Of a stretch of 64,000 nt of DNA, positions 25,585 through 64,000 are shown piece after piece; the first letter of the stretch is position 1, and each line of letters opens with the position of its first letter. A program made the position numbers and the translations under genes. The stretch is from Takakia lepidozioides (Eukaryota; Plantae; Bryophyta), in assembly GCA_030704615.1 (NCBI GenBank), contig CM060734.1, positions 60,264,001-60,328,000 on the forward strand, read 5' to 3'. Below the pieces are notes generated by a model. The model did not search any database, had not been told where the DNA came from, and worked only from the letters and a program-made list of their open reading frames with translations.

Positions 25585-25644
<60 letters not shown>

Positions 25645-27057
25645 AACGTCTTATAAGTACATTCTCTCACACAGGGGAAAGAGGGGTTGCAATTGCCAGT
25701 TGTGTGGGCAACCTGAAGACAATATTCAGTTTCTGATTCATTGTCCTGGGTAGTCTCGAGAAGGACGCCCTCTTCAAATCCATCAAGGGAATTGTGCCTG
25801 AACCTCTGTTTACCAACTTTGAAAGTCTCTTTTGGTCTGAGCCAAAAGCCCAGGCACTTTTGGGGCCTAGTTATTGGGCAAACCACACACAGCAGATTGA
25901 TGCTAGTGTGTCAGGATTTCTAGAGGATATCTGACTAATTGTCTGTTCCAAGGTAAGTCATAATACTGGCGTCAGCCCCTGACCAAGGTAGTTTCTGTCC
26001 CTTTGTGTTCTGCTCAAACTGAGGACGGCGTCAATGGCCACAAGGCTACAGCAAACAACGTCGTATGAGTACATTCTCTCTCCCTCTCTCATGCGCAGTG
26101 GTGGCATTCAACGACCGTGGGGAGGGAGGAGGCGACTCAAGTGGCAGTGGGAAAGCCAAGAGATTCATGTCCTCCCTTCCTACACATACCTTGGTGTTGA
26201 GTTCTCCTCCAACTGTAATTAGGAAGCAGATACACAAAAAGTTGTTCAATCTGGCAAGCGCAAACGTATGGGTCTCACTAAATTTTTTTACTGCAGAGGG
26301 ATCAACTCTGAAGTCAAAAAGAAGCGTTTTGCCACATTATTAGGCCTACCTTGGAGTACACATCTGCTGTGTGGGTTGATGACTTCAACCAGGCTAAGTC
26401 TCTAGAATTCATCCAAGTGGGGGTGCTCAAGGAGTGCATGTCAGCATGCTCCATAACAGCTTATGTGGCTGTTCGGGGTATTCTCACCAGAGAGTGACCC
26501 TCTTCACACACACATACCTGGAACACCCCTAAAGAGTGCGTACTCACAAAACCCTATACATGAATGAGAGAAGGAAGCAGTGGTGTACCTTTTTATTATT
26601 GGGCGCCTGCTGCCGTCTCAAATTCGAAGGGTCCAAGGTTGGCATAACTGGGGGTAGGCCACCTGTGAGGGCATAAACCTGTACAAAGTGCTCTCAACAG
26701 ACTGCTGGCAACCAGTTTCACTTATCATGGATTTCCTCCTCACATCGAAATTATCAGAGCAAGCATCTACGAAATCCCAGTACATTAAGCGCCCTCCATC
26801 CTAAATTGAAGAAGGTCCGAGTCAAAATACATACAAACACAATCAAGTACTTCATTTCAGACAAAGCACCTTATCTACCTTCGTCATCTCCCGCACTCAC
26901 ATGCAAGTATGTACACAAAGCTGCAACTTTACAGTACCTCTCGGGAAACTCCATCTGGCTTCTTGAAAGCATCTTTGGGCGCTCGCCCGCGTTTCTCAGA
27001 ATTTCCCCCGAGTGCAGCTCCTTTAGGAAGTCCCAATATATCCTTAGCATCCCCCAT
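13823..27057 (-). CDS. SWC4: SWR1/NuA4 complex subunit SWC4 (DMAP1/EAF2 homologue), ~15 exons
   Basis: Exons read in frame: 27057-26938 ([12 protein letters not shown]...KKPDGVSRE), 26678-26589 (VYALTGG), 20613-20548 ([22 protein letters not shown]), 20206-20147 ([10 protein letters not shown]), 19875-19819 ([10 protein letters not shown]), 19254-19125 (SANT-like [27 protein letters not shown]), 18896-18829, 18579-18487, 18340-18293, 17349-17128, 16997-16887, 15620-15525 (KPKVPT...HLELRKE), ~15260-15181, ~14881-14803, ~14413-14380. The last exon ends [21 protein letters not shown] at 13823. Confidence 0.92.
15727..16705 (-). mobile_element. 5'-truncated LINE copy (3' ~1 kb) in a SWC4 intron
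   Basis: Near-identical to 24545-25545 on the opposite strand ([26 protein letters not shown], 3' tail ...GTCTTATGAGTACAATC). It has a small internal deletion near 16240. Confidence 0.92.
17490..17972 (+). repeat. ~240-bp near-perfect tandem duplication of a decayed LINE C-terminal fragment
   Basis: Two units start aggaaaaggagactgtcaatgcccaatgtgcg and encode [16 protein letters not shown], like the LINE C-terminus. Confidence 0.85.
21105..25545 (+). pseudogene. LINE polyprotein reading frame, disrupted by a TAA at 24012-24014 and frameshifts near 24555 and 24700
   Basis: ORFs 21105..24014, 24147..24563, 24355..24720 and 24654..25736 tile one APE-RT-ZnF protein. The 15727-16705 copy shows the uninterrupted frame at both frameshift sites. 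Confidence 0.88.
21473..21877 (+). repeat. Three 141-bp (47-aa) in-frame tandem repeats in the LINE N-terminal region
   Basis: PKCxEPxR..[25 protein letters not shown] occurs three times. The 'taagtg' anchors lie at 21479, 21620 and 21761. Confidence 0.92.
25675..26480 (+). mobile_element. Older diverged LINE fragments of the same family (3' end first, then an RT-region piece)
   Basis: 25675-26075 resembles 25140-25545. 26093-26480 resembles 24317-24700 ([29 protein letters not shown]). Confidence 0.85.
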
Positions 27058-28080: not shown

Positions 28081-28656
28081 CATGAAGCTCAATGATGGTT
28101 GGGTTTGATTTTGATTTTTCTTTTCTTTTGGTTTTTTAAGAAAAGGGGATGGAAGCCCTTTAACTTTTCCTTTGAGTACTATGGATGGAGGTCCAGTAGG
28201 TCATATTAAAGAGGGCATGGAAAAAATAACCAAGCGAGGAAATGGGCAAGCCAACATTTGGACTGTCAAAATTACGTCGGACAAGTCTATCATCCAATAA
28301 ATAAGCACGGTGGTCCATGTCATCCTTGCATGCAAAAAAAAATTGAACCCATGGGATAAATTTTAAAACATATTCAGTGATTATCGTATTCTGTGTATGA
28401 ATTCATCCATGCAAACAGTGCTTCCGCCACTGCTATAACAGCAGGCAGTTGAAATAACTCATTGACGAACCTTCCAGTGTGAGATAACATGCAAATCTAG
28501 CCAAATATGTGAATATACTAGAAAATCACATTCTGCCCCAAGGATCCCACTAGAAGATGCAGGAAGAAGTCTCCTCAGCCAAAGGTTGTTGGGCCACCTA
28601 GTTCAGAGTAAATGTGACAAGGGGATGGAAAAGATGGAAGCTGCAGCTTAATTGAC

Positions 28657-29830
28657 ATGGTGATTGTCAAGATGATCTACTCAACTTTGCTAGAAATTCA
28701 CACCTTCAGCTTACAAGACATTCAGAATCAAGATCAAGACGATTGGCAATGGCCAATCAAATACTATCTGAACACAGGGAAATTTCCTGAAGACTACACC
28801 AAAGATGACAGGAGAAAGTTTTCAATGAAAAGCAAGCCATACTCAGTAATCAAGGGAATTCTGTACAAAAGAGGAATTGACTCCATAATGAGAAGATGTG
28901 TGAACAAAGAACAAGCCAAAACAATGATGCAAGAGCTAAACGAAGTAATTGCAGGAGGATACTTCAATTCGGACCTAACAGCAAAGAAGATATTATTAGC
29001 AAGTTACTGGTGGCCTACTGTATGGAGACACTCATGAACACTGTCAACAGTGTGATGTTTGCCAGAGGATGGGACCAGTAAAAACGCACTGGGTAGGGTA
29101 CTATACACCCAATACTACCAACAGAACCATCTCAAGCTGGGGCTAGACTTCGTGGGGCGCATTAAACCTCCAGCAGGTACACACAAAACCAATACCTCCT
29201 CACAGCCACTGACTACACTACAAATGGGTAGAGGCCAAGGCACAAAGAACAACCTGCCAGATCGACAACCAAATCTTATATGCAAACATCATCACACGAT
29301 TTGGTTGCCCCTAGAATTCGTAGTGATCAAGGATCCCATTTTATAAATGATGCCATAAAAAGCTTGACAGAGGAGTTCATGATCGTACATCACAAGAGTA
29401 CTGCTTACTATCCCCAAGGAAATGGCCAAGCCGAATCTACCAACAAAATATTATGCACTATCTTAACCAAGATAGTAAATGCCAATCATACAGATTGGGA
29501 CACACAATGAACACAACACTATGGGCATTCAAGACATTATACAAGGTGACCACGAAACATACACCATTTCAACTGGTGTATGGAGCAGAGGCACTATTAC
29601 CCATTGAATGTCATGATACCTACACTACACTACGAACCGGAACTCATGAACTGGGGTTTAGAGGAATCTTTACGAGTCAGGGAATATGAATTTTCCATCT
29701 AGAAGAAGTTTGGGCAGACGCCGCAGATACATGGCACAATTCAAGAACAAACGAAGAAATGAATATCCAAAGGGAAAGAAAAATCTTTCCATGACGGGGA
29801 CATTGTTTATTTTACAAAAATCAACATTGA
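28657..29830 (+). mobile_element. Decayed Ty3/gypsy integrase fragment (non-chromovirus-like)
   Basis: YWWPT, LGLDFVG, IRSDQGSHF, STAYYPQGNGQAESTNKIL and TPFQLVYG are spread over several frames. Confidence 0.88.
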
Positions 29831-29849: not shown

Positions 29850-31594
29850 GGGCGGGCCCGGCACCAGCCTGCATTGATACTGACTGCGTCCCTATGGCAG
29901 ATCGGGTCCGGCTGCAACCATGTCTGATTGCACAAACTTGTGTCGCTCCTGCTCCTCTGCTCCAGTACACAGGCAACCACGAGCGGGGGTTCATTAGCCA
30001 TTACAAGTTTGTTCTGCTTCAAGGAGATGCAGTCATTCGCAATGAGACAAACCCCAACCGTCTCAAGCTTTCGAGTGAGAGAACTATCAGACCTACCTTG
30101 TTTTCTTTAGTGTTCAGTGAGCGGGAGATAGGGAGTATTGCTTTGTTTCGACCTGGTAGAAAGAGGAGGACCGGGCACGAGGTGCAGGCCAAAGACGCGG
30201 AGGTCAGGGTGTTGACCAAGGCATGGCCAACCTTTTTCAGCAGCTAGAGCAGAGGCTCGTTGCCATGGCTTACAGCTCAGGCGTGTACCCAGACTCCCAG
30301 GCGGGATGGGTCACCTCCTGCTCTCTGAGGGAGGAGATTGGGGAGGCATGGATTCATGTGCGGGAGCAGCGCTACCACTAGAGCAGGTGGAGTTTGCTGC
30401 AGCCCGTGACCCGAGGCGCAATCACGAGTTCCTGAGCCACGAGGTGCAGAGGTGGAATTGGATCCACAGTGTGGGGAGGCAAGCCGTCAGGCGAGGCTTC
30501 CTCAGTCATTCACATTGCGGAGACTGTGTCGACGCCATCCCAATGGCAACCTAGTTCTCTCGCCGACTGTTACCCGAGGTGGAGGTTACTATGTATTGGG
30601 GAGACTACATCAAACACTGCACCCTGACACCCCTGCTACTAATGCTAGTGCATCTGGTGTGTTATTGGGGGCAGCCACCTTTGTGTGTCAAGCCCACTGT
30701 TCTTGGCAACCATGATTGTGAAACCCCGGGGTAAGACCAGCTGCAGTGTTCAGACAGTAGCAACACTTCACGAGAGTGGGGAGGTCACTTCATCTCTTCT
30801 GCGGGAGTTAGTGGAAGGTGTAGTGGCAGAAAGATCCTCGGATTTGGGTCAAAGACTGCCACGGCGACGGCTTGCGCCCTGGCAAGCTGAGCTGCCAGAT
30901 TGACGGCGCTGCACTATGCCAAGCCTTTGAGCGCGCCATGGTGACACCATGGAGTGTGTCTGTTAGACAACCAGGGAGGCATTTTTTCATTGATTGGACC
31001 GGCAGGCAAGAGGTAACCGGGCTCCTTCGGGTCTTGTTTGGACCTCGGGAGCTCAGCATTGATGTTGGGCGAGCTGCTATCACAGGTTTGGGGGCCTCAT
31101 GAAGGCGGATATAGGAGCTTGTCCTTTCCAGATACGACATCTTTGGGATGATCAGAGCAGTCTCGGGGCATTACGACTGCGTTTGTTTGGCCATCAGACT
31201 GGCAGCCGGATCATCCTAGAGATGGCGAAGAGTGAGCGAGCCAGGTCATTGTGACAAGACGCGGTCCTCTTATACGATGTCCTCGTTGGTGGGGCATGTT
31301 ATACCCATGGGCTTCACCCTGGGACTTTGGGAGGAGTCCATTCTATCAAAGGCCTGGATGCAGTCAGGGAATGGTCATCGTGCACAGCCCCTGTTAACAT
31401 TCATTGGGGGTATTGCGGCGACCCAGCGGGGCAGAATGCCAACACTAGCCTTTTACAGCTGGTCAGTTAGTTGCCTGAGTTGCTGGAATGCATGCCCATC
31501 AGAGGATGTGCCCACCTCCGCAAGCAGGATGACAATGCAATGTTCCGGTGGAGTTGTCCTGCCATGGTTGTGCTCACACGCGATTGTGGGGTAA
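29850..31594 (+). mobile_element. Heavily decayed gag-protease portion of the DNMT-carrying Ty3/gypsy family, cut at 31594 by a younger copy
   Basis: GGMDSCAGAALPLEQVEFAA, ELDPQCGEASRQARLPQSFTL, FERAMVTP and PMGFTLGLWEES match 37100-38700. It stops just before the methyltransferase domain. Confidence 0.88.
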
Positions 31595-32300
31595 TGTCGT
31601 GCGCATACATATCGCTACACAACTACATCGCTGTCCAAAACCACAACACACATGTGCACACCACACACTAGTATATACCACTAGTCTACCACTAGTCCAG
31701 CCACTAGTCCAACCACTAGGCTACAACTAGTCAGTCACTAGGCTGCCACTACGCTGCCCACTATGGCAGTCACTAGTCCACACAATGATAAAGAAGAAGA
31801 ATACAAGCACAAGCTCATGCGAGCTCACAAAGCTGAAGCATAAACTCATGCATATATAACTCATCACTCAAATACAAGTCAAGCCAAGTGCACCCCACGC
31901 CATGGGGAATCCACACTACGGCGCCATAGCTAGGCGCGGTGAGGCTCAACTCGAGAAAGATGAGCCTCCCGCTTTGCCGTGAAGATAACCACTCCAGGGC
32001 CTAAATCTGCCTTGACCCCTGGATTGACACTTGGGCCAATCCCAAATGTCAATATGTAAAAGCTAGCTATTTCCTAGCTAGTTTCACACTAGTGGTAAAA
32101 TAACTTGACAGCTGTCGTGCGCATACATATCGCTACACAACTACATCGCTGTCCAAAACCACACAACACATGTGCACACCACACACTAGTATACCACTAG
32201 TCTACCACTAGTCCAGCCACTAGTCCAACCACTAGGCTACAACTAGTCAGTCACTAGGCTGCCACTACGCTGCCCACTATGGCAGTCACTAGTCCACACA
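31595..32300 (-). repeat. 3' LTR region with A-B-A layout (A = 31595-31786 and 32113-32302)
   Basis: Two near-identical ~190-bp A segments containing ccactagt micro-repeats flank a ~325-bp hairpin-rich B segment. On the minus strand it starts TGTGTGG after PPT+AT and ends CGACA. Confidence 0.85.
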
Positions 32301-32560
32301 ATCGCCCCCCTAGCTGGTGCTTAGGTCCCTCTAAGTCCAGGTAGCCACAAGATGTGATAGTGACCATAGCCTCACTAAGTCCTCCACCACTATCCCTACT
32401 ACACTCAAACTCGATAGATCAAGAGGCCGGGTGCAAGAGTTGCCCCATCGTTAGTCGCCGTCTTGCAACCTGTGAACTTGAGCTTGGGATCTCATGTATT
32501 GACTCCTATGAGCTTGGCCTCCCATGTCTTGTTAGCTGCCTCCAGTCATGTCCACTGCCA

Positions 32561-32705
32561 CTATCCCAAGCAGTGTGGACACAACCAATCTCCGTCAGGA
32601 ACCTTCTCAAGAGGTGGTGTCAAGCATCCCATATGCCAACCCCTTGAGCATCGATCACACACCAGCATGGTGGCTGCCCCTTTGGCAGACCCACAGAGCA
32701 TGCAC
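32561..32705 (-). CDS. PHD finger at the integrase C-terminus
   Basis: CMLCGSAKGAATMLVCDRCSRGWHMGCLTPPLEKVPDGDWLCPHC fits Cys4-His-Cys3. The second copy (60282..60752) has it in frame with the integrase tail. Confidence 0.93.
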
Positions 32706-32749
32706 CTCAAACCTGCAGGTACCACTGCCAAGTTTGGGTCAACTCTCTG

Positions 32750-33830
32750 CCATCGACATTGGGAAGGTGACATGGCGCACAATTACGCACATGGTCCTTC
32801 CAAGTCATGCCATCCCGACCCTCCAAGATCAGGACCCCTGAGGGCAACACCTCTCGAACCCTCAGAATAACACGCCCTGCAGTAACATCCAGAGTCGTAG
32901 GAGCAGTCTGCTGCAAATAAACATAGTCACCAGGGCTAAACCTCCGAACCCCAGGACGATATCCTCCACCACGTATAGTGGCATACCTCAACGTATCACG
33001 GTGCTGTGCAATGGCAAGGTTCTCAAAAGCCATGGGCATGACTTTCTTGAACAACTCTGCACGCTGATCACATGCACGTACCCACACGTCCGGATCGTCA
33101 AGGTTAAGGACTTGAGCAGTGTCCCTACGAATGGCTGCAGGCAAATCCGGCTCTCGGCCAAAGAGAAGGAAATATGGTGAGAAGGAGGCAAGTGATGCTT
33201 GTTTGCTGAACCTGTAGCCCATGGCTAACCAAGGAACCTGAAGATCCCAATCTCCTAGGTGTCCCTTCTGCAAGCCATACTTGCGCAAACCCCTCTTCAC
33301 CGTCTGAACAACTCTCTCTGCTAAGCCATCGGCCTCAGGATGATCCCGAGAAGTGGTGCGGTGGTCTATCAAGGCTTTATCACACAAAAGCCTGAAACTC
33401 CCCCAAGAACTCTCTCCCTTGGTCCGTGAGTACCTCAGCTGGAGCACCAAATCGGCTAAGCACACGATCCAAGAATGCATACGCAGCCCCCTCACTAGCC
33501 TTGTCAGGCAATGGAACCAACTCAATCCACTTGGAGAAGTGCTCCACCATCACCAACACATATCTGTGGTGGCGCATAGTCAGTGGCAACGGTCCTGCGA
33601 AGTCAAGACTCCACCTGTAGCCCAATCCCATGATTGGTAAAGGATGCAACTGTGGTGTAGGGGCGTTGAATGAAGCACGCACCCTGTCACACACCATGCA
33701 CCTAGCCACAAACTGTTGCACCTCTGTATGCATACCACGCCACCAATACTGCCCCTGCAGTAAACTGTGAGTGCGTCGCACTCCAAAATGCCCCAACTCC
33801 TCATGGGCATGCCGCACTAACCGTGCACGC
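32750..33830 (-). CDS. DDE integrase (frameshifted)
   Basis: HAHEELGHFG...CMVC zinc finger; WSLDFAGP, LTDQGREF and DGLAERVVQTVK form the D,D,E triad. Confidence 0.93.
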
Positions 33831-34199
33831 TGTGTGGGTGAGGCACAATCCTCACCCGACCATCCTCCCACACTCGAAGTAGGTGTATCCCCTCCCACTT
33901 GAACCTCTTGGCTCGTTGCAGGATCCGATCCGATCCCTCTCCCTGGCAGTCACAATGGCTGCCGTGTCTCCCGTGCGGAGGTAGTCCAACACAGCCGAAT
34001 CCTCATGTATATCTCTGGCACCACCTAGCTCATCACTAGCCTCAGGGTCCTCAGACACTCCGTCTACAGTCATCCCTGTTGTAGGTCCAATCTGACCTCC
34101 CCCATGCCAAGATACACAAAAATGCAGATGCGTGCCATCCCGGCACCATCTCCTCGTCCGTCTCACCATGCCACCGAGCTCCAGTGTCATCCTGCTGGC

Positions 34200-35490
34200 T
34201 CATGCATGGATTGCGACTCAATCCATCCGCATCCCGATTGACCAAACCCGGTCGATGCACAACCTGAAAGTCATACTCCTGGAGTATAAGTGCCCACCGT
34301 GCAAGCTTCCCCGTAAGCTTGTCTGACTCCATCAACCACTTGAGTGGCTGGTGATCCGTGACAAGGGTGAAAAGATTGCCGTATAGATAGCACCTGAAGT
34401 GTGCCACGGCCCACACTGCAGCTAAGCACTCTCCCTCATATGAGCTGTACTTAGCCTCTGCAGCGTTGTTCGAGCGGCTAGCGTAAGCCACTACGAACTC
34501 TCTTCCCTCATCATCCACCTGTGTGAGCACCGCTCCAAGCCCCAGCATGCTCCAATCCGTATGCAGCTGAAAGGGACGCCCCCTGATAGGTCGTCTCAGA
34601 TAGGCGCCGAGGTCAACCTCGCCTTGAGCTCTTGAAAAGCTCGTTCCTGCTCATCTTCCCACTGCCACTCCTGGTCCACCTTGGTCAGCTTGGTTAGAGC
34701 CTTTGCAATGGTACTAAATCCCTTGACAAACCGTCTATAATAGTTTGCCAACCCCATGAAAGCTCGAACTCGGCTCACATCCGTGGGGCGTGGAATTTGT
34801 GCAATGGCCTCTACCTTAGTCTGCTGTACCCCCATCCTCCAGGATATATCATGTGACCCAGATACTCAATCTGGTTGTGGAAAAACTCACTTCCCCGGAT
34901 GCAACTTCAATCCGTGCGCTCTCAAGCGCTCCAATACCACCTGAAGGTGTCTCTCATGCTCCTCCATCGTAACACTAAAGATGATGATGTCATCTATGTA
35001 GCACCGAGCAAAGTCCACCCCTGCTAGAATCCTATCCATGACTCTCTGAAACTCTGCAGGAGCATTCTTAAGCCCAAATGGTAAGAACCGCCACTGATAT
35101 AGGCAATCCTTGCCGTGCTCATTGATCCCCCAGAATGCGTCTTCTGCTTGTCCGCCTCCTTGATTGGCAACTGGTGATATCCGGATCGTAAATCCAAAGT
35201 GCTAAAGGCCTTAGCATGCCCGATGGCATCAAAGATCTCCTCTGGTGTTGGCATGGCATACTTATCGGACTTGGTCTGACGATTTACAGGCCGGTAATCA
35301 CCGCACATACGTCTCTCCGTCCAATTGCCATAGACATCCTTCTTGGCTGGCATCACTGTGGCTGAAGCATACTCTCCACCAGAGAGCTCCACCAAACCTG
35401 CCTCCCAGAGATCTTGAGTCCTCATCTGAATCAAAGACCTCTCCATGTCACTGTATCTATAGGGTCTCCGAAAGATTGGCGTGTCAGTGG
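34200..35490 (-). CDS. Reverse transcriptase and RNase H (frameshifted)
   Basis: RT: RMCGDYRPVN, FSTLDLRSGYHQ, CYIDDIII (~34980-35003), RAFMGLANYYRRFV. RNase H: LHTDWS..GLGAVL, YEGECLAAVWAV, LVTDHQPL, NRDADGLSR. Confidence 0.94.
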
Positions 35491-36004
35491 CCAACTCATA
35501 TACGGATCTCTTGACCCTTCAGTGCTCCCAAGTCCTTCAAACTGAAGGCAAAGCAATTCCTGTAAGCCCTCAGGAACCGCCGTATACGTCGTCTCTCTCC
35601 TCCGGTGACAATGGGTCCAATGTCAGGCTCCCAATTGTCCTCCGTAACTACAACCTTAAGTCCAGTGGGCTTAGAGGTAGAGGAGCGTCGTCCGTGGTTG
35701 CTATGCGCAACCTCTTGAGCAGTACTCCCTGCCTGCTCAGTCAATGACAAGGCCTCATCCTGCCCCATCATCTCATCCTTGAGGACCTCCTCAACCCGAG
35801 AAGAATCCCCAACCTCATCCATCACAGCCGCCTGCTGGCTGCAACTCCCTCTGAACCTCGAGCACCTCCCACGTGTGCCATGGATGCATGCACCCCGTGG
35901 TCCTCACATGCTCGCCCCCACTCACTGCCTGTACCGTCTCGGTAGGCAGAGAGACCATTGAGGGAAGTGTATTCCGCACTCTGCGTTGCTCAGCCAGAGC
36001 CAAG

Positions 36005-36950
36005 CTGATAATCCAGGTCAAGCAATTGAGATCCATTGCTTGCCCCAACACTTGACGACGTGATGCCTCAGAAAGAGACGACACCGCCGTGGTACCAGTG
36101 GTAAAACCCATTGCCCGCTCACGCTCGTCAGCATTAGGCTCCACTAACTGCTGCAACTGAGCATCCCACAGGAGGCCAGGTCCACTATCCCGGAAAGCAT
36201 GCGATCCTGGGAAGCTGAGCAGTGTAGGTAATGCTGCTCGTGGTTGACCCACCTTGTTGACCACTGCCAAAGGCGAACGGTCATCGTGTCTCACACGTTG
36301 AGACTGCCTCCCTGTGTCCAGAATGTTATCCACTGTGAGATGTGCTGGCCGCTGCACCCCATCAAATGCACGCTTGAGCAGTGCGGGTGGCATCATGTTA
36401 GTCCACCATAGCCGTGGACGATGAGCCCGTGACCCCACTGTAGCTGCATCTAGCAACACTGCTGACCCAAGCCACGACCGGACTTGATGCACACTGGCCA
36501 TCACCCTGGCCCGAGAATCGCCCATCAGTGCACATTCTCCAAGATGTATGCTGGAGATACAGCTTGATGAAGCTGCAAGTGGCGCAAAACCCGCACCATC
36601 TCCCAAAACAGACCCGACCTCGAGTCTCGCAATCCATTGCCATGCCCGGCTGATGAATGCCCTTGGCAGGGCCAACCTGCCACTACCAGATCAATGGAGC
36701 CAACCCGCTCCAAATCCTGCGCCCCCAGCAACGAAATGTCTGCTGGCAAGGCCTGCTGATATCCACGAATTGCAGACACCGACAACAACTCAGGGTACCG
36801 CTGCACCAACTGAGCAACATGGCGAAGTGAAACGCGTCGTGCAGTCTCATCCCTCTCCACATACAGGTAACGCCGAACTCGTACACCTGCCTGTAACACA
36901 GCAGCCAATCCGGTGCTGATCCCGCCAAACAAGTCCAGAAGACAAATGCC
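36005..36950 (-). CDS. DNMT3-like DNA (cytosine-5) methyltransferase domain inside pol
   Basis: Motif I LLDLFGGISTG, II YVERD, IV IDLVVAGWPCQG (catalytic PC), VI YILENV, VIII DAATVGSRAHRPRLWWTN, IX ERERAMGF, X RRQVLGQAMD. One 1-nt deletion follows ENV (~36529). Confidence 0.92.
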
Positions 36951-37399
36951 TTCATCCGGAGACTGCCACACAATAGGTGTGGTGTCCAATGGAGACAATT
37001 GAGGTGGTCCTGGTGCAATCCCCACACTCTCCTCCTCTCCTGACGGTACAAAAGCCTCCACCCAGGCTTGTTGCACCCGTCGATCAGCATCCCGCTGCAA
37101 ATCCTTGCTCGTGCCCCACAATGGAGTCTGAGCAACCATGGTAGGCAACTCCGCCATACCATACATGTCATCCTGCTCTCCCCGAGGTGGTACATCCTCT
37201 GAATGAGCATTGCCCTCAAGCAACTCTCTAGGCCAACTCACTGCCGCGGTGAATGCTGCTAGTGTCGGCATCTTGCCTCGCTGGGCAACCGCAACTCCTC
37301 CTATGAACGTCACAGGGAGCTGCACACGCCGGCCCTCCCCTGACTGCCATGCAGGCCTATAGGAAGCTGACTCCTCCCAAAAATCCAGGGTGAAGCCCA

Positions 37400-38997
37400 T
37401 GGGGTACAACACTGCCCCCCAACCAGGACATCGTATGAGACTGCGTCTGTCACAATGGCCTTGGCTCGCATCACTGAGCCATCTGTAGGGTGATCCGGCC
37501 GTAGTCTGATAGCCAACTCACGCCGCCGTGTCATGCCCCGAGCCTGCTCCGATCCTCCCAGAGACGTCTGTATCTGGAAAGGACAAGGCTCCATATCCGC
37601 CTCCGTGAGGCCCAAGCCTGCAATAGCAGCTCTGCCCAGCATCAATGGCTGAGCTCCCGAGTCCAACAAGACCCGCAGTGGCCGGTACCTCTTCTTGCCT
37701 GCCGGTCCACTCAAACAGAAAATGCCATCCTGGTTGTCTAACATGACAACTCCAGGTGTCACCATGGCGCGCTCAATGGCTGGCCTAGCTGGCAGCTCCA
37801 TCAACCTGGCAGCTGCAGCTTGCCATGGCGCCGCCGTGGCAGTCTTGACCCTCAAATCCGAGGATCCCTCCGGCACTACACCTCCCACTATCTCCGCAGA
37901 AGATGAAGTAACCTCCCCACTCTCACAGAGTGTAGCTGCCAGCCTGAACACCTCAGCTGGTCTTACCCCCGGCGTCGCAATCATGGTAGCCGAGAACAAT
38001 GGAGCCTGGCACACAGATGTGGCCGCTCCTAGCAGCACACTAGCTGCCGTAGCCTTGGCAACACTAGGTAGTGGTGCTACCCGTGTAGCTCTCCCCAATG
38101 GCATAGTAACCTCCGCCTCGGTAACAGTCGGCGAGAACTAGGTGCCATGGATGGCGTCGACACTGTCTCCGCCAATGTGAATGACTGAGGAAGCCTAGCC
38201 TGACGGCTTGCCTCCCCACGCTGTGGATCCAACTCCACCTCTGCACCTCGTGGCTCAGGAACTCGTGCTGCTCCTCGAGTCACGGCTGCAGCAGACTCCA
38301 CCTGCACTAGTGGTAGTGCTGCTCCACACATGAATCCCATGCCTCCCATATCTCCTCCCTCAGGAGCAGGAGGTGGACCATCCGGCCTTAGAGCCGGTAC
38401 CACCTGAGCTGTAGCCATGGCAGCGAGCCTCTGCTCTAGCTGCTGAAGCCGGTTGGCCATGCCTTGGTCAACACCCTGACCTCCGCGTCCTTGGCCACGT
38501 TGAGCTTGCCCTTGGCCTCACCTCGTGGCTGGCCACCTCGTCCTCTCTGGGCTGCTCCACCTCGCCCCGGCCACCATTGTTCCCTTGGAACTGGCCTGGG
38601 CGCAACTCAGGATGCAAACCATAACACGGGCCTCTCCATGCCCGTTCTTGCCACAATGCCCACCTGCAACTGTGCAGGCTGTGCATGTGCCGGCCCTTTG
38701 CCTCCCTCTGGCAATCCTTCTTGACATGGGGTCCTCCACATGTCCAGCACACCACATCCGCCCGTTGTTGGCCAGCAAATGAAGGGAGAGACCCCTGCAT
38801 CTGAGGTCCTCTCTGCCCTTCCCTGAGCTTCACCTGAGCCCCCTTGTTGCCTTGAGCACGTTGAGGTAGTGGTTGGCTAGGAGCACCACTACCCCGTGGT
38901 GTCTCCTTAGCAAATCCCACCATGACCACTCGTTCCTCCACCATGTTGAGCTCTATCCGCTCTGCCAGCAAAAACACATTTGCTAAGGTGGGTTGGG
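37400..38997 (-). CDS. Gag C-terminus with two zinc knuckles, followed by aspartic protease (frameshifted)
   Basis: CWTCGGPHVKKDC, and a second knuckle clearest in the other copy (CGHCDKYGHGDAQC). Protease RVLLDSGAQPLML...YDVLVG. Confidence 0.88.
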
Positions 38998-39497
38998 NNN
39001 NNNNNNNNNNNNNNNNNNNNNNNNNNNNNNNNNNNNNNNNNNNNNNNNNNNNNNNNNNNNNNNNNNNNNNNNNNNNNNNNNNNNNNNNNNNNNNNNNNNN
39101 NNNNNNNNNNNNNNNNNNNNNNNNNNNNNNNNNNNNNNNNNNNNNNNNNNNNNNNNNNNNNNNNNNNNNNNNNNNNNNNNNNNNNNNNNNNNNNNNNNNN
39201 NNNNNNNNNNNNNNNNNNNNNNNNNNNNNNNNNNNNNNNNNNNNNNNNNNNNNNNNNNNNNNNNNNNNNNNNNNNNNNNNNNNNNNNNNNNNNNNNNNNN
39301 NNNNNNNNNNNNNNNNNNNNNNNNNNNNNNNNNNNNNNNNNNNNNNNNNNNNNNNNNNNNNNNNNNNNNNNNNNNNNNNNNNNNNNNNNNNNNNNNNNNN
39401 NNNNNNNNNNNNNNNNNNNNNNNNNNNNNNNNNNNNNNNNNNNNNNNNNNNNNNNNNNNNNNNNNNNNNNNNNNNNNNNNNNNNNNNNNNNNNNNNN
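38998..39497. other. Assembly gap (500 N)
   Basis: Run of N. Adjacency across it is not verified. Confidence 1.
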
Positions 39498-42400
39498 AGG
39501 GTTCGACACACAGCAGAGAATGAAGTGCAAGGACATGTGTCAAAAGAAGAGGACTGGAAACGGCCGTCAAAGGGATGAAAGGCGGCACCCATTTATGAGA
39601 CGGAAAAAGTGGAAACAGAACAACGGCAAGTACAGAAAAACTGAATTCATGTCGCATGTGTGATCCTAGTGGACTATCCAACAGGGAAAGTCCACTAAAG
39701 AAGATAAAAGTTAAAATCCAGTCACACTGATACAGCCAATAGAAAACCAGAGAAAGATCAAGAAAAGGGGGAATTAAGGCGCAAGAGACGGCGTCGTTCT
39801 GAGTAACTGGGCTGTCTCGACAGGACAGGCCATAATGCATAACTTGGAAACTATTGAAGGAGCTAACAGACTATACGCTCGCAATATTACTTACGGCAAT
39901 GGCGGAGACCGAAACGAAAGAGCAAGCAGCGTTTCTCCTTGAAACAATGCTTGCAAGCCCCGCAGGCTTCACAAGAGTCCCATACCTTTCTACCTTTCTG
40001 CGGCAACCATACTTTTCCTGCTTGGTGCACTACAGGCATTCCTGTAGTTGTTACCAGCCAAAGCAGTTCTGTGAGTCTAAGATAAGAGAGTGAGAGAATG
40101 GAGGAAATCAGGGTGAAGAGCAACACCATTCTGCAAAAACACCGATGGCTACCACCCCACAGGCGATAAAGATAGTGAAGGAGCTGAGATTGGAAGGATT
40201 GCAAAGCATGGATTGGACACACACCATAGACAGTACATGTTACAATTTTTGCAGAACTTTTGAGCCAAAGACAGGAACAACAACAGTTGAAGGAGTTTAA
40301 TTAATGATTAACTCCCCTATACCTCCAGCAATTGTTTTTCATTGCCAGAAGGTCATGTGTCTGTGGAGGAACACAGAGAAAGACTGCAAAATAGGGGATT
40401 TATTCCAAGAAGGGAGTTTCTTTAAAACTCAGGTTATGATGCTTGTACCAAAGCTGTGTACCCGGGTTAAAAGACATAGCCAAGTATTGAACGTTCTGAT
40501 GCCCTGAAACAGAAACCAACAATTTTGAGCAGATCCTTCACAGAGGAAATCCTCAAGGGCTTGAGGGACAAGAGGTACCATGGGCGGACATAATGTACAA
40601 CGCACTGGTAGAGGAGATGAAAGATTACAAGGTACTACCGCAAAATCTCCTATCATAGTGTCTGGCCCAATCATTGCTCAAATAATCCTTAGTTCTGGCA
40701 TACTTAATGCACACGAAAGGAAGGAAATGGGAGTGTTTGACCAGAAACAACTGCAATGGAAGAGCAGGCTCTTCACACAGTGAGGTGGACTAGCAGCACA
40801 ACCCGAGACTAAGAGGCGAGAAGGGAAAGACTGTAGTGGCGATCCACTGGCTTCACGGATTCCGCATTGATAATGTTTTTCCCAAGCTCAATGACCCGGG
40901 GGGCACAACAGCACAAAAGAATGTTATTACTGGAAGCAGGACCTTCAGATAGATGAGGAAGAAGTTACTTCTGCATCACAACCAACCAGCCACTTGAACG
41001 ACTTGTCACAAGGTCACAAGTTATCCATGCAGCTCAACCCGAATAATAGATTTGGAAAGTGAAGGGTAGATTTCCAACTACAGAACAGATAGTGGCGGAA
41101 ATAGAGCAAGGGGACCTTCTCTATGAATATCTGGTCTGGTCAAGCAGACAGAAATCCCAGAGGTGCAACAGTTACCCAAGAAAAATCCTGAGGTACATAT
41201 AATGCACACACCTGTGTCGGAGATACCACAGGCGGAAGGCCATGACACTGTAGCACCGGTCATAAATGAAGTAGTTCAGGAAGAAAATCCGGGGGACAAT
41301 GGTCCTGAATGGTTTGAGACATCATACTGTTGAAGATCGGGAGGAACAGCAGCAACCTCACCATGATGACCCTCAACAGGCAATGCTGATGAATTCCATA
41401 GGAAGACACTTAATTGTTGGGGACTTATGTCAAACCCATGTTCCAATTACCCCAATTGACAGCCTTGAAAGAAGAACTCAGGAAGGAGTTTGAGGGCTCG
41501 ACTTGCCACTGAGTGTTCAAACAAGGTCGATGAAGAGGTCACTCTTCAAGATGAAGCAGGACTTGGCCAATACATAAATGGCTTTGCAATTGGCCAAGCA
41601 ACAATTGATTGAGGCAGGCCTTGCGCAAGACCAGTTGCACGAAGCACATAAGCAACAGCTATACCAAATGCAGGTGCAGCATGAAACATTTACAACTATG
41701 CTTGACAAACAACAAAAGAAATAAACAGTTTTTTTCAAGCGGAAAACAAAAAAAAATGTTACGAAGGCAGAAGAAGAGAATGTGGAGCACATGAAGCTCA
41801 TTGTCGATATGAAGAATACAATCTGTCGCAATGAAGATACTTTCAAGCAATACAGGCAGATGGAAGCTGAGAATGAGAAATACATCGTGGAGTTGCAACA
41901 AACCATCGTGGGCCAATAGAAATGAATCGCGGTCAGTAACAAGGCTTCGAAAGAAGCCAATAATTTACTTGCTGCCTATGCGCAATTGGTTGAGCCACAG
42001 GCGAAGCGCATGAAGGCTTTACAACAGCAGTGGAATTGTATAAGCTAAGAGAGAGCAAACTCTCAGGGGAACCACAAGCAGCTTGGTGGATAACTAGCCT
42101 TATGCAGGTCTGGTTAGCACAATGGCCAGTAGAGGGCAAAAGCCCACGGAGCTCACCCAAAGCGAGATGAATGAGCTCAGACTGCAGGTGCAGAAACATT
42201 GCCACAACTACTATAGACAATGTCTATAGTAGGATCGCAGAGTTACAAGAGGATGTAGACGACTCCAGACTCAAGTAGAAGACCTCACTTCAAACATCGA
42301 CCAAAGAGTCTATATCCCTCAGGAACAGCTAATGGCTTCTTATTTGCAGAGCCAGAACTCTGGCTTTTCAGTCTTCACAGGAGGTGCAGGAGATGCCAAT

Positions 42401-44749
42401 GGTACAGGAACCAGTGTAAAACCACCACCAACAACAGTCAGGTCCAGTAGCTGAACCTGTGGTTTACAACCAACCACACCACCACAGCCGGAGGTGGTAT
42501 GGGGCAATGCAGCTTTTAACCCACCTAAAACTCCAAGCTGCCAGGAGTACAGTAGGGCTATGATTATGCCCTTCAACCAAATTCCATCATGTTGGATTTG
42601 GCTTTGGAAAGAATTTAGTCCTCCGCAGTCATTCGCACATTACTACCAAATCATGCGTATCTGGCTGCCAGTGGCAAACCAGGACTAAAGTTCTTCCAAA
42701 CAATCGACATATTGAAGATCATCACTTTGCACAATACTGGCACGAGGCAGGTACCATGTTGAGGAATTGGTTGCTTTCCAGGTTGTACATGGACTCATTT
42801 ATACCAAGACCAAGAGAGATAGCAAGTATTGTCATGGGGTGCGGGCTATACTACGCTGCTTGTTTCCTGATACGTTACCACATAGAGCAACAAAAGATGC
42901 AAGCACGATTTCAAAGTTACTCCAGTGGAGACATTGGGTATTAACCTTCGGTGCCACCTCATATGTACCTATATGACCCAAAACTTATGATACAAAAGGA
43001 TTCTCAAATTCGTTCATGGTTTCAAGCAGCCTGCAACAATTTGTCAACACACAGAAAAATTCGGACTTGATGACATTTTCTAAAGGGACATATCGCATGA
43101 AATAATTGCACGCCGGCACCAGTTAATTGGTACCCCACTCATCTGGACAGACAAGGAGCTCAGTGTCTACACCAATTTTGCTGTTCAACGGTTACACCAA
43201 GTTGTAAAATGCAAAACTTCCAGACAGGTTAGGACAGCATTGTATGCCCCAGATGATTCCACAAAAAGTTCGAAAATTAAAAACACTGAGAGGCGATGAG
43301 GATTCTGATACAAACTGTTTCTTCACAAAATTCCTTTTGACATGGGAGAAGACTATGCATTTCAGATGGAAGAAAAGAAACAAAGGGGATCTCCTATGCC
43401 GGAAAGATTACCTCGATATCAACCTCCAGAAGGCCTCACTTATCCAGGTAGTGATCAACCATCTCCATCAACCAGAGACATACCTCGGGCTCGTACACAC
43501 AGCCCACCACGAACTCTCAACGTCAACAAGGTGCTCACTCACAAAGGGTTGCTACTCGGAAACAGTAAACCGTGAGGACACGCTTTTTGAGGGGGGGGGA
43601 AGGGGGTAATGTTAGAGGACTGTAGGGGACTTAGACACTTATAACGGGATCTGTAGGGTACCCTAATTTTTGCACAGACTGAGACAAACAGGAACCTTAG
43701 GGGTGACAGCACGCGCACTGTAGAGGGGGTTACATAGCCCACACAGCCGACACAGCAGCACAGCCCACACAGCCAACACAGCCCGTCACAGTCGTCACAA
43801 CCCACACAGCCCAACAGCCCGTCACAGTCGTCACAGCCCACACAGCCGTCACAGTCGTCACAACCCACACAGCCAACACAGCCCGTCACAGTCGTCACAG
43901 CCCCCCACACAGCACGACACAGCCGTCACAGCCCACACAGCCACACAGCCCGTCAACAGTCGTCACAGCCCACACAGCCGTCACAGTTCGTCCAGCCACA
44001 CAGCCCACACAGCCCGTCACAGTCGTCACAGCAGACACAGCCCACACAGCCAGTCACAGCCCGGCACAGCCACACAGCCAGTCACAGCCCGACACAGCCA
44101 AACACAGCCAGTCACCGCTTGACACAGCTGTTCACGATAATAGGGAACGAAGAGTAGGACAGGGAAACGACTGTGGGGAACAACACCAGTGAAGGGAACA
44201 TGTTAGTTCACATACGACGGTTAGAGAGGGAAACGGTTAGAACCGCGGATAGGAGGATAAAGGGAAGAACGGGGAGTAGGAAAGGGATCATTATTCGGGG
44301 AGGACTTTGGAGACAGGCGGGAGCGGAGATCGGAGAGCACGATGAAGGAGAAAAGAGGATTAGTAGATGCTTGTCATATGCAAAGCTAGAGTGATATTGT
44401 AGAGCAGATTAGAGACATAATGGATTCGGCCTGATACCTGATAAATCATAATCTGATACTTATACGATACAATCACACTGTGTAGAGAGATCTGAGTGAA
44501 GCTGTGGATTGAATGGAGGAGTTAAGGAAACCGATAAATTGATGAAGCAAACTGATACTTAATTATCAATGGTAAGGTAGCTAAGATGAATGCGGAAAAG
44601 GAAACAATAGGAACACCCCCATGATACACTAGCTGTAGGTCATGACTGATTGTTCTGCGCGGGCTGAGTACTTAGAGATTTCCAACTCTTCTATCTTGGA
44701 GTTTCCGCCTCGGATAGCGAAGGGATGGGTGAGTAAAAGCCGCGCGACA
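39498..44749 (+). mobile_element. Second LTR family: indel-riddled accessory ORF, PPT (43589-43609) and 3' LTR (43610-44749)
   Basis: Inverted homologue of 46393-51590. PPT gaggggggggaagggggtaa. LTR TGTTAGAGGAC...CCGCGCGACA with an internal cacagcc/gtcacag array. Confidence 0.88.
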
Positions 44750-44750
44750 T

Positions 44751-45278
44751 TCATCTCTGCCCGATCCCCTCTCCTCCATGACCAAGAAGTCCTCCTCCGA
44801 ATGATATCCCTCAATTCCCCGTTTCTCCCTTTATCTTCCTATCCGTGGTTCTAACCGTTTCCCTCACTAATCGTCGTCTGTGAACTAACATGTTCCCTTC
44901 GCAGGTGTTGTTCCCCACAGTCGTTCCCTGTCCTACTCTTCGTTCCCTATGATCGTGACAACTGTGTCAAGCTGTGACTGGCTGTGCGAAACTGTGACGG
45001 GCTGTGACTGGCTGTGCGACTGTGTTTGGCTGTGTCGGGCTGTGACTGGCTGTGTGGCTATGCCGGGCTGTGTCGGCTGTGACGACTGTGTCTGCTGTGA
45101 CGACTGTGACGGGCTGTGTCGGCTGTGACGACTGTGACGACTGTGACGGGCTGTGTAACCCCCCTCTACAGTGCGCTGCTGTCACCCCTAAGGCTCCTGT
45201 TGGTCTCAGTCTGTGCAAAAATTAAGGGTACCCTACAGATCCCGTATAAGTGTCTAAGTCCCCGACAGTCCTCTAACA
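44751..45278 (-). repeat. Partial inverted LTR (5' part) of the second family
   Basis: Matches 46812-47426 and ends ...CCTCTAACA at 45278. Confidence 0.88.
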
Positions 45279-59498: not shown

Positions 59499-62400
59499 TG
59501 TCGTGCGCATACGTATCACTACACAACTACATCGCTGTCTAAACTACACCACACATATATGCACAATAAAGTAGTCTGCCACAATGATTGAAAACTAAAA
59601 TCACACTGTTGACACAGAAACACTCAATACAACACAATCACTCATTAAAATAGTAGTCGAGCCAAGGGCACCCCAAGCTATGGGGACTCCACCCCACAAC
59701 ATCCTATTCTCCCTTCATAAGTACACTCAGATTCTAAGCAGTGAAGGAGCTCGGTCGTGCAGGCTCAACTCGAGAGAGATGAGCCGCACGACTGACACGC
59801 TCGTGAAGATAAGATGGTTCAGGTATCAAACTAAACTTGACACCTGACTTAACACTTGAACTAAATCCAAGTGTTAAATACAAATAACTAGATTTATTCT
59901 AGTTAGTTTCACACTGTGTTTATTTAACTTGACAGCTGTCGTGCTCATACGTATCGCTACACAACTACATCGCTGTCCAAACTACACCACACATATATAC
60001 ACAATATAGTAGTTTGCCACAATCGCCCCCCTAGCTGGTGGATAGGTCCCTCTAACTCCAGATAGCTACAAGATGTAATACCACAGCCGTACTAAGTCCT
60101 CTATCACTGTCCTTATTGTACTCAAACTCTATAGACCAAGAGGCCGGGTACAAGTAGTAGCCCCATCGTTAGTCACCGTCTTGCAATCTGTGAACTTGAG
60201 CCAGGATCTCGTGTGTTCAAGGTCTCATAATAGCTTGGCCTTGCATTTCTTGTTAGCCTTCCATGGTTGTATCCACTCCCACTATCCAATGCAATGCGGA
60301 CATAACCAATCCCCATCAGGAACCATCTCAAGAGGTGGAGTCAAGCATCCCATATGCCAACCTCTAGAGCATCGATCACACACCAGCATGGTGGCTGCCC
60401 CTCTAGCAGACCCACACAACATGCACCTCAAACTTGCAGGTACCACTGCCAGGGTTGGGTCAATCCTGCCATCGACATTCGGAAGGTGACATGGCGCACA
60501 ATTACGCACATGGTCCTTCCAAGTTATGTCATCCCGACCCTCCAAGATCAAGACGCCTGAGAGCAATACCTCTCGAATCCTCAAAATACCACGTCCTGCA
60601 ATCACATCCAAGGTTGTAGGAGCAGTCTGCTGCAGATAGACATAGTCACCTGGGTTGAATCTCCGAACCACATGACGATAGCCCCCACCACGTATGGTAG
60701 CATACCTCAACGTATCACGATGCTGTGCAATGGCAAGGTTCTCGAAAGCCATGGCATGACTTTCTTGAACAACTTTGTATGCTGATCACATGCACGTGCC
60801 CACACGTCCGGATCGTCAAGGTTAAGAACTGTAGCAGCTTCTCTACGAATGGATGTAGGCAAATCCGGCTCTCGGCCAAAGAGAAGAAAGTATGGTGAAA
60901 AGGAGGCAAATGATGCTTGCTTGCTGAACCTGTAGCCCATGGCTAACCAGGGTAATTAAAGGTCCCAATCTCCTAGGTGTCCCTTCTGCAAGCTATACTT
61001 GCGCAAACCCCTCTTTGCTGTCTGAACAACCCTCTCTGCCAAGCCATCGGCCTTAGGATGATCCCGAGAAGTGGTGCGGTGGTCTACCAGGCCTTGTCAC
61101 ACAAAGCCTGAAACTCCCCTAAGAACTCTCTCCCTTGGTCCGTGAGTACCTCAGCTGGAGCACCGAATCGGCTAAGTACACAATCCAAGAATGCATACGC
61201 AGCTCCCTCACTAGCCTTATCAGACAATGGAACCAACTCGATCCACTTGGAGAAGTGCTCCACCATCACCAACACATACTTGTTGTGGCGCATGGTCAGT
61301 GGCAATGGCCCTGCGAAGTCAAGACTCCACCTGTAGCCCAATCCCATGATCGGAAGAGGGTACAATTGTGGAATAGGGGCGTTGAATGAAGCACGCACCT
61401 TGTCACACACCATGCACCTAGCCACAAATTGTTGCACCTCTGTGTGCATACCACGCCACCAATACTGCCCCTGCAGTAGACTATGAATGCGCCACACCTC
61501 AAAATGCCCCAACTCCTCGTGGGCATGCCACACTAACTGTGCTCGCTGTGTTGGGTGAGGCACAATGCTCACTCGACCATCCTCCCACACTCGGAGCAGG
61601 TGTGTCCCTTCCTATTTGAACCTCTTGGCTCGTTATAGGATCCGATCCCTCTCCTTGGCAGTCACAGTGGCTGCCGTGTCTCCAGTGCGGAGATAGTCCA
61701 ACACAGCTGAATCCTCAAAGAGATGTCTGCTGGCAATGCTTGTTGGTATCCACAAACTGTAGACACTGGAAACAAATCAGGGTACTGCTGCAGCAACTGT
61801 GCAACATGGCGCAGTGAGACGCGTCGTGCAGTCTCATCCCTCTCCACATACAGGTAACGTCGAACTCGTACACCTGCCTGCAGCACTGCAGCCAATCCAG
61901 TGCTGATCCTACCAAACAAGTCCAGAAGGCATATGCCTGCATGTGGGCACTGCCACACAAGTGGTGTGGTGTCCAATGGCGACAACTAAGGTGGTCCTAG
62001 TGCAATCACCGCATTCTCCTCCTCTCCTGACGGTACAAAGGCCTCTACCCAGGCTTGTTGCACTCGTCTATCAACAGCCCGCTGCAAATCCTTGCTCGTA
62101 CCCCACAATGGAGTGTGAGCAACCATGGCAGGCAACTCCGCCGTACCATGCATGTCATCCTGCTCTGTTGGAGGTGGCACATCCTCTGCATGGGCATTGC
62201 CCTCCAGCAACTCTCCAGGCCAATTAACTGCAGCTGTGAAGGCGGCTAGTGTTGGCATCTTGCCCCGCTGGGCAGCAGCAACACCCCCAATGAATGTCAC
62301 AGGGAGCTGTACATGACGACTATCCCCTGACTGCCATCCAGGCCTGTAGGATGCTGACTCCTCCCAAAAATCCAGGGTGAAGCCCATGGGATATAACACT

Positions 62401-63808
62401 GCCCCACCAACGAGGACATCGTAAGAGACCGCATCTGTCACGATGGCCTTGGCTCGCATCACTGAGCCATCTATATGATGATCTGGCTGTAGTCTAATGG
62501 CCAACTCACGCCGTGTCATGCCCTGAGCCTACTCTGATCCTCCCAGAGATGTCTGTATGTGGAAAGGACAAGGCTCCATATCCGCCTCCATGAGGCCCAA
62601 ACCTGCAATAGCAGCTCTGCCCAACATCAGTGGCTGAGCTCCCGAGTCCAACAAGACCCGCAGTGGCCGGTACCTCTTGCTTGCCGGTCCACTCAAAGAG
62701 AAAATGCTATCCTGGATGTCTAACAAGACAACTCCAGGTGTCACCATGGCGCGCTCAAAGGCTGGCCTAGCTGGCAGCTCCGTCAACCTGGCAGCTGCAA
62801 CTTGCCATGGCGCAGCCGTGGCAGTCTTGACCCTCAAATCCGAGAATTCCTCTGCCACTACACCTTCCACCAACTCCGCAGAAGATGAAGTGACCTCCCC
62901 ACTCTCGTAGAGTGTTGCTGCTAGTTTGAACACTACAGCTGGTCTTACCCCCGGCGTCGCGATCATGGTTGCCGAGAACAGTGGGGCTTGACACACAGAG
63001 GTGGCTGCCCCCAACAACATACTGGCTGCACTAGCCTTGGCAGCAGGTGTCAGTGCTGCACGTGTAGCTCTCCCCAATGGCACAATAACGGCCTCTGTAT
63101 CTGTCGGGCGAGAACTAGGTGCCATGGATGTCGTCGACACTGTCTCCCCTAAGATAAATGATTGAGGCAACCTAGCCTGACGGCTTGCCTCCCCACGTTG
63201 TGAATCTAACTCCACCTCTGCACCTCGTGGCTCAGGAACTCGTGCTGCTCCTCGAGTGACGGCTGCAGCAGACTCCACCTGCACTAGTGGTAGTGCTGCC
63301 CCACACATAAATCCCATGCCTCCCATGTCTCCTCCGTCAAGATGACGCTGCTGAGGAGGAACAGGAGGTGGACCCTTAGGTCTTGGAGCTGGTACCACCT
63401 GAGCTGTGGCCATGGTAGCAAGCCTTTGCTCTAGTTGCTGAAGCCAGTTGGCCATGCCTTGGTCAACGCCCTGACCTCCATGTCCTTGGTCATACTGTGC
63501 TTGCCCTCATCCTACACCTAGTGCCTGACCACCTCGTCCTCTCTGAGGTGCTCCAGCTCGCCCTCGGCCACCATTGTTCCCTTGGAACTGACCTTGCCGC
63601 AACTCAGGGTGCAAGTCATAACATTGGGCATCTCCATGCCCATACTTGTCACAATGCCCACACTGCAACTGTGCAGGCTGTGCTTGTGCCGGCCTTTTGC
63701 CACTCTCTAGGCAATCTTTCTTGATATGGGGTCCTCCACATGTCCAACATATCATCCTTGGTTGTTGTTGGCTTGCAAAAGATGCTACTGGCCTCTGCAC
63801 CTGAGGTC
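59499..63808 (-). mobile_element. Internally deleted copy of the DNMT-carrying Ty3/gypsy (gag-PR-partial MTase / INT-PHD-LTR)
   Basis: A-B-A LTR at 59499-60021 and PPT at 60024-60034. PHD and INT at 60282-61590. MTase motifs I-III only (61717-61940). PR and gag at 61986-63800. RT and RNase H are absent. Confidence 0.92.
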
Positions 63809-63822
63809 GAGGTTTACTATTT

Positions 63823-63870
63823 CATGAGCGCATGAGCGCATGAGCCCATGAGCCTATGAGCTCATGAGCG
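63823..63870. repeat. 8-bp tandem repeat (catgagcg/catgagcc) at the start of unrelated sequence interrupting gag
   Basis: catgagcgcatgagcgcatgagcccatgagcctatgagctcatgagcg. Confidence 0.75.
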
Positions 63871-64000
63871 GACATCCGCGGAATTGGAATTTTCCTGCCT
63901 TTATTGACGGTGTTATGTCCTCTTACCTCGGTAATAGGGTCTGTTTCTCCTGGTCCTGGATGCGGAATGAGGTATTTCGGCGCCGTTATTCCCAAGAGCA

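Follow-up and report, generated by a model that had tools for sequence, protein, structure and literature searches.

Previously, a gypsy-type retrotransposon with DIRS-like repeats, KnitGypsy-Dnmt3, was described from Klebsormidium nitens, and its cytosine methyltransferase was presented as an acquisition of that alga (de Mendoza et al. 2018, PMC5890265). The main text of that paper does not name Marchantia (PMC5890265), and KnitGypsy-Dnmt3 is cited as "streptophyte" in the available text of two later papers. Why a transposon keeps a transposon-silencing enzyme has been an open question since 2018, when the algal gypsy domain showed no activity in yeast (PMC5890265). In searches of the literature outside subscription journals and Repbase, we found no land-plant family of this kind described, and neither a readthrough stop nor a priming map; the supplementary trees of the two later papers may hold land-plant copies. 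Here we analyze a stretch of 64,000 nucleotides from contig CM060734.1 of Takakia lepidozioides (the window), in which a first-pass annotation had noticed a Ty3/gypsy copy with a DNMT3-like methyltransferase (element 1).

In the sequences analyzed, the domain is a family trait under purifying selection. In the window family it forms the last part of the Gag-protease frame and is followed by an in-frame stop that is conserved, rather than being an ordinary domain of Pol. We think it rather probable that this green-lineage Ty3/gypsy element, by ending its Gag-protease frame with the methyltransferase before a likely leaky stop, would package many copies of the enzyme, which would then likely methylate the element's own complementary DNA (cDNA) before insertion.

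The methyltransferase domain and the stop behind it

Element 1 was compared with the best 80 of 313 related metagenome stretches (labels beginning with L). Its minus strand encodes, in order, Gag, protease, C5 methyltransferase, reverse transcriptase (RT), RNase H, integrase, and a PHD finger. The features of the family in the window are as follows.

31595..38997, minus strand: element 1, a copy of Ty3/gypsy type that runs into the N gap at 38998-39497, where its 5' end is lost
38080..38997, minus strand: C-terminal part of Gag, with zinc knuckles (CWTCGGPH at 38749-38726) and several frame breaks
37310..37720, minus strand: aspartic protease (LLDSGA at 37669-37652); PF13650 at E 0.014, below the cut-off, stronger in the relative L027
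35986..36950, minus strand: DNMT3-like C5 cytosine methyltransferase domain; motifs I-X linear, one frame break near 36530
35695..35703, minus strand: TAG CAA CCA, an amber stop in a readthrough context of the tobacco mosaic virus (TMV) type, at the methyltransferase/RT junction
34784..35639, minus strand: RT with leader, frame-broken (YIDD at 35000-34989)
34200..34600, minus strand: RNase H (PF17917, E 7.5e-37)
32749..33838, minus strand: integrase, with HHCC finger and D, D, and E motifs
32570..32743, minus strand: C-terminal PHD finger (in element 2, the corresponding stretch matches PF00628 at E 2.8e-11)
32302..32311, minus strand: polypurine tract, directly before repeat B1
32113..32301, minus strand: repeat B1, with 1.1% substitutions relative to B2
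32107..32116: palindrome GACA-GC-TGTC joining B1 to A; two attachment (att)-like ends back to back
31786..32110, minus strand: repeat A, 3' copy (layout from related loci)
31595..31785, minus strand: repeat B2; element end ...GACA, flank TTAC
59499..64000, minus strand: element 2, same family, about 87-89% identical, with the same B-A-B end
30187..31591, plus strand: Gag-protease part of a third and older copy of the family, 81% identical

The identity of the element and of its domain is virtually certain. The order Gag-protease-RT-RNase H-integrase with a DDE integrase is that of the Metaviridae, in line with the Ty3/gypsy assignment of the first-pass annotation, and the Pfam matches downstream of the methyltransferase are to RT, RNase H, and integrase families. 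TG...CA ends and a target duplication of 4 bp, within the 4-6 bp of the Metaviridae, were found in the relatives, the window copy showing the 3' end alone. Two complete, colinear long terminal repeats (LTRs) were not found; the layout is A-internal-B-A-B or A-internal-B. Membership in DIRS, PAT, or Ngaro was rejected: the two complete frames of L027 contain no Pfam match to a tyrosine recombinase and a DDE integrase instead. Troyka was rejected as well, its CG...CG ends, 3-bp duplication, and restriction to animals not being found here.

Over its aligned coding parts element 1 has 17 frameshifts and one in-frame stop. Motifs I-VI and VIII-X of the methyltransferase lie in different frames, and no whole enzyme can be read from the assembly. 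Contigs of the same sample differ from element 1 by small indels at breaks between 35450 and 37050. Many of the breaks are probably assembly errors, because the two B repeats differ so little and the N gap adjoins the element. These breaks had not been stressed in the first-pass annotation, which mentioned neither the stop nor the split repeats.

All of the methyltransferase motifs quoted there were located on the minus strand and in the order given: LDLFGGISTG (36938-36909), YVERD (36863-36849), AGWPCQG (36680-36660), ILENV (36545-36531), AHRPRLWWTN (36426-36397), ERERAMGF (36126-36103), and RRQVLGQA (36060-36037). The profile search that it had proposed returned PF00145 on the N-terminal half at E 8.9e-12 and 3.4e-11, above the family cut-off; the C-terminal half alone matched no Pfam family and is up to 71% identical to relatives. 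Since the window frame is broken, identity was tested on a homologue from Calypogeia (P0001, 67% identical over the C-terminal half). A sequence search with P0001 returned DNMT3A first (E 8e-11), followed by DNMT3B/C, DRM (4e-7 to 2e-4), and bacterial enzymes (4e-4 and weaker), and DNMT2 scored far below DNMT3. The structure model of P0001 has a mean predicted local distance difference test score (pLDDT) of 59.9, mostly 80-90 within the domain, and all matches listed by Foldseek were DNMT3, with target template modeling scores of about 0.8 for isolated domains. The Atlas likewise gave DNMT3 by structure, but phage enzymes ranked equally high by language-model features. The domain is thus closest to DNMT3A by sequence and by the predicted fold of the homologue, with phage enzymes tying by features. 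Membership in the DRM enzymes was rejected, the motifs running linearly from I to X without circular permutation, as had been proposed at the outset. A search of viral contigs with the domain gave just six weak matches to phage methyltransferases (E 1e-8 to 4e-6).

A profile of four unbroken domains collected 432 clusters at 50% identity (E up to 1e-30). Among the best 150 representatives, the catalytic residues are kept almost without exception: Cys in 145/145, Glu in 148/150, and the two Arg in 146/148 and 146/147. The ratio of nonsynonymous to synonymous substitution rates (dN/dS) of the domain was determined to be 0.13 for both L027/L029 and L027/L036, 0.08 for the window against L002 (where dS is near saturation), and 0.17 for element 1 against element 2 (72 codons). 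The corresponding values were 0.05-0.06 for the RT side and 0.34-0.57 for the flanking linkers. The dN/dS check suggested by the first-pass annotation therefore came out as purifying selection. Its argument that element 2 makes the domain a family trait was upheld on other grounds: motifs I-III are present there (motif I reading FGR instead of FGG), but a deletion of about 2.7 kb at 61716/61717 removed everything from motif IV to RNase H, so that a copy without the catalytic half lends the argument little weight. The aligned coding parts of element 2 contain two frameshifts and six in-frame stops. Contig pieces covering the 1.6-kb domain region numbered 16,931, 21,069, 8,036, and 266 in four runs (at most two samples) and occupied 30/30 bins in each of them, which marks the domain as a feature shared across an abundant family; the summed depth of these pieces does not amount to a copy number.

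Relatives extend the family to other land plants. A protein search with the C-terminal half gave 39 matches among 7,992 scored, including 15 from Marchantia polymorpha and one each from Calypogeia fissa, Sphagnum fallax, and Monoraphidium. Gene models of M. polymorpha such as Mp_Vg00370, Mp_5g06330, and Mp_4g09160 contain unbroken Gag-protease-methyltransferase frames of about 1,280 residues; two with frames that look unbroken (P0050 and P0051, Mp_Vg00370 and Mp_Vg00540) lie on the V (male) chromosome, judging by their gene names. In a tree of RT-RNase H, built by a quick method with 61 rows and without P0038, which was too short, the window sequence is placed beside Calypogeia, Marchantia, and moss-type loci in a group of 7 rows (support 97), nested in a clade of 48 rows (support 99) that includes Klebsormidium, Closterium, and Haematococcus. 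Two K. nitens proteins (P0143 and P0165) fall inside the larger clade; neither holds the domain or is confirmed as KnitGypsy-Dnmt3, and a search with the domain of P0034 returned four proteins and no Klebsormidium record. In the relatives P0026, P0032, P0038, and P0170, one of them from Monoraphidium, the same domain stands after RNase H, and by these placements the domain has moved within the clade. In RT relatives adjoining the clade (P0194, P0197, P0201, and P0212), an adenine methyltransferase (PF05869) is found instead, and three of the four also have a PHD finger.

The unbroken relatives show how the domain is joined to the rest of the element. L027 has a Gag-protease-methyltransferase frame of 1,369 codons, a single TAG, and then, in phase, an RT-RNase H-integrase-PHD frame of 1,047 codons; L036 has the same junction of two frames with one stop. 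An in-frame stop followed by a YAR-YYN context was found in 30 of the 31 loci in which the RT leader could be located (22 TAG, 8 TAA), and in 25/26 after removal of duplicate assemblies, against a background of 263 in 33,761 stop-like triplets (0.8%). The distinct contexts are CAA-CCC, CAG-TTA, and CAA-TCA, with CAA-CCA in the window, where the TAG-CAA-CCA at 35703 is the sole TAG-CAR-YYA on the minus strand. The context CAR-YYA is reported to direct readthrough in TMV (PMC2194720). In 18 aligned proteins, chosen from 100 without RT, all end shortly after motif X. By analogy with TMV, it is quite likely that the stop is read through. For the RNA behind the stop, the predicted folds of four loci had no structure in common, in a comparison made without a shuffle control.

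The placement inside Pol given in the first-pass annotation holds for a sister family (L045-L080), in which the domain is fused to RT and 10 of 17 in-frame junctions are free of stops; it does not hold for the window family. A conserved stop was not found in the Gag-protease part of the sister family either (at most 10/32), and its motif IV reads GWEC. In both designs, before the stop and fused to RT, the enzyme would be supplied at the level of Gag.

Split repeats and integration

In elements 1 and 2 alike, the end runs purine tract-B-A-B, and the palindrome GACAGCTGTC spans B|A. The layout of related loci is A-internal-B-A-B (L035, L038, L047, L050, L056, and L069) or A-internal-B (L016), and related elements begin with TGTC and finish with GACA. 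Among eight relatives with both ends, the 4-bp target duplication is perfect in six, has a mismatch in one, and is absent in one. In repeat B of element 1 (31595-31785 and 32113-32301), both copies contain about 100 nt of ACTAGT-rich tandem units that element 2 does not have.

No tRNA-type primer site was found behind A in the related loci. The stretch behind A is complementary to positions of about 163-166 of A, which beats all 20 controls in 13/22 loci, and the self-complementary stretches differ in sequence between two families. In self-priming elements the sequence behind the 5' repeat is likewise described as complementary to the presumed start of the RNA (PMC6317226). The RNA of the window family would thus start about 165 nt into A and prime itself just behind A, as the complementarity in the relatives suggests, and plus-strand priming at the purine tract would yield a cDNA with B+A at both ends. 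The A|B joint coincides with the primer sites, and the internal palindrome with the integrase-type ends. This suggests that the primer-defined repeat is B+A and that inserted copies begin and end within it, as would a two-repeat circle opened at B|A. The ends of the cDNA would be joined to give the A|B joint, and integrase would open the internal GACA-NN-TGTC to leave A-internal-B-A-B and a 4-bp duplication; integrase is reported to cut palindromic two-LTR junctions in foamy virus (PMC1180852). In the sister family, TG/CA is missing from the ends of the primer-defined repeat, and the internal B|A palindrome is kept.

We consider the use of internal att sites highly probable, and a true circle as the route to it slightly favored. 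The leading competitor, which we rate as credible though less likely, is that the split repeats arise from a linear intermediate, through jumps of the template and trimming at att sites inside the repeat, instead of from a closed circle. In its favor, the A|B joint is nearly constant, and A-B-A-internal-B, the mirror product expected of a symmetric circle, was found in 0/24 distinct upstream A copies, which counts against such a circle. It fits less well with primer sites at the end of A and the start of B, and the short A-internal-B copy with a duplication (L016) agrees with a one-repeat circle, although recombination gives the same product. A test gave no position-specific inheritance of B1 versus B2 (0-1 columns). 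Both B copies within an element share private variants, and in old copies the B distances within an element are just modestly below those between elements. The permuted repeats offer a natural case of an integrase using internal ends, and LTR finders that depend on a complete pair of LTRs would probably overlook such elements or misinterpret them.

Possible role of the enzyme

In the mechanism that we propose, readthrough of a few per cent, as the TMV signal suggests, would yield RT and integrase, and the methyltransferase would be made at the level of Gag and probably released by the protease. From the position of the stop, the enzyme is predicted to be made at the level of the capsid, which favors action on cDNA. 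The enzyme would mark the cDNA with 5-methylcytosine, so that a new copy would arrive resembling resident methylated chromatin, and the PHD finger may steer integration. Methylation of the element's own cDNA is the role that we somewhat favor as the main one. The fullest form of the proposal is less likely than not: a large green-lineage clade, active in land plants, in which readthrough supplies every particle with a de novo cytosine methyltransferase, and in which a DDE integrase, as the normal route, opens a methylated circle at the att palindrome within the repeat to insert pre-methylated copies.

Several observations weigh against this proposal. The loci with the stop come largely from one Sphagnum-like family, leaving about five distinct junction lineages, hence not independent, and that dominant family reads CAA-CCC, short of the full CAR-YYA. 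In the window copy, frame breaks flank the stop and the 5' end is missing. The sister family has no conserved stop at the domain/RT junction. Among the best 150 representatives the domain stands after RT in 35 and before RT in nine, and supply at the level of the capsid is therefore not universal. CpG depletion is no stronger in element 1 (observed/expected 0.53) than in its neighbors (0.37-0.47), and depletion of CHG left no special footprint in the element. For the KnitGypsy-Dnmt3 domain, the lack of methylation in yeast was called inconclusive by its authors; a related algal retrotransposon DNMT3 is reported to methylate CG de novo (PMC5890265).

An active enzyme might instead serve as a brake or act on the host: in the nucleus it would methylate the copies already resident, or the site of insertion, and limit transposition. 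De Mendoza et al. raised this option (PMC5890265), purifying selection is silent on the substrate, and a PHD finger points to chromatin. We judge it unlikely: the domain shares the frame of Gag and protease and lies on the side of the stop that supplies the particle, in which the available DNA is cDNA, and the family abounds in the same sample. Less likely again is a domain whose task is to bind nucleic acid or act as its chaperone, or to methylate RNA rather than DNA. The lack of activity of the Klebsormidium domain in yeast and the lack of extra CpG loss agree with it, and supply at the level of Gag would suit a structural role, whereas there is almost no variation in the catalytic Cys, Glu, and Arg, and the closest folds are DNA enzymes, with DNMT2 far lower. 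The least likely alternative, by a small step, is that the stop is spliced out of the RNA for RT and integrase, or that these are made from an RNA of their own. The Marchantia and Sphagnum gene models that join the domain to RT by introns (P0004, P0005, P0012, P0019, and P0022) are a point in its favor and a further one against readthrough, but they do so at differing points, while a single stop separates two frames in phase and the CAR codon is conserved as the surrounding linker diverges. Methylation of the element's own cDNA thus remains our preferred role, and the unbroken frames of M. polymorpha make the purpose of the enzyme testable in a genetic model.

Neighboring elements and comparison with known systems

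Element 1 is inserted into the oppositely oriented third copy of its own family, shortly before the expected start of that copy's methyltransferase. Just before the third copy, on the plus strand at 28600-29800, lies the decayed integrase of an unrelated gypsy element. The region 39500-52970 consists of two long inverted copies, about 90% identical, of another LTR-type element with GC-rich tandem arrays of 9-10 nt; it includes a protease-like frame (45110-46105) and a coiled-coil frame (48446-49549). A long interspersed nuclear element with endonuclease and RT is found at 21039-25736, and its 3' part recurs inverted at 15765-16683 with 97-99% identity.

The stop of the window family has counterparts in the retroelements MuLV, SIRE1, and Tca2, which are described with an in-frame stop between frames, and in TMV, which shares CAR-YYA; in the window family the stop follows protease and an added enzyme, and is not at gag/pol or pol/env (PMC2194720). 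With Tf1, Sushi, and Tcn1 it shares the absence of a tRNA primer site and a sequence behind the 5' repeat complementary to the presumed start of the RNA, and differs in having a PHD finger instead of a chromodomain and permuted repeats (PMC6317226). The integrase of foamy virus is also described as cutting a palindromic junction, but in that virus the LTR-LTR joint itself forms the palindrome, whose cutting is a side path (PMC1180852), whereas the palindrome of the window family is located within the primer-defined repeat, where it marks the ends of the element.

Other retrotransposons with a cytosine methyltransferase are more distant. SymbioDIRS-Dnmt3 has the same A-B-A-B layout, and its activity on CG was demonstrated; it is a DIRS element with a tyrosine recombinase and has other hosts (PMC5890265). 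EpiLTR, also from other hosts, is described with DAM, a chromodomain, and a DNMT4-related enzyme (bioRxiv 10.64898/2026.05.21.726589).

The closest system is KnitGypsy-Dnmt3, which is the charophyte precedent to which the first-pass annotation had referred. Both have the gypsy domain set, an intronless, non-permuted DNMT3-type domain with catalytic residues, purifying selection on that domain, and DIRS-like split direct repeats (PMC5890265), and the RTs of P0143 and P0165 from K. nitens belong to the 48-row clade that contains the window. In KnitGypsy-Dnmt3 the domain is described within the Pol frame, as it is in the sister family L045-L080, whereas in the window family it ends the Gag-protease frame before a stop of the readthrough type. 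The main text on KnitGypsy-Dnmt3 mentions no PHD finger, and the text available gives no mechanism of priming or integration (PMC5890265). In contrast to that element, described as an acquisition of one alga, the window family is very abundant and has relatives in liverworts and mosses.

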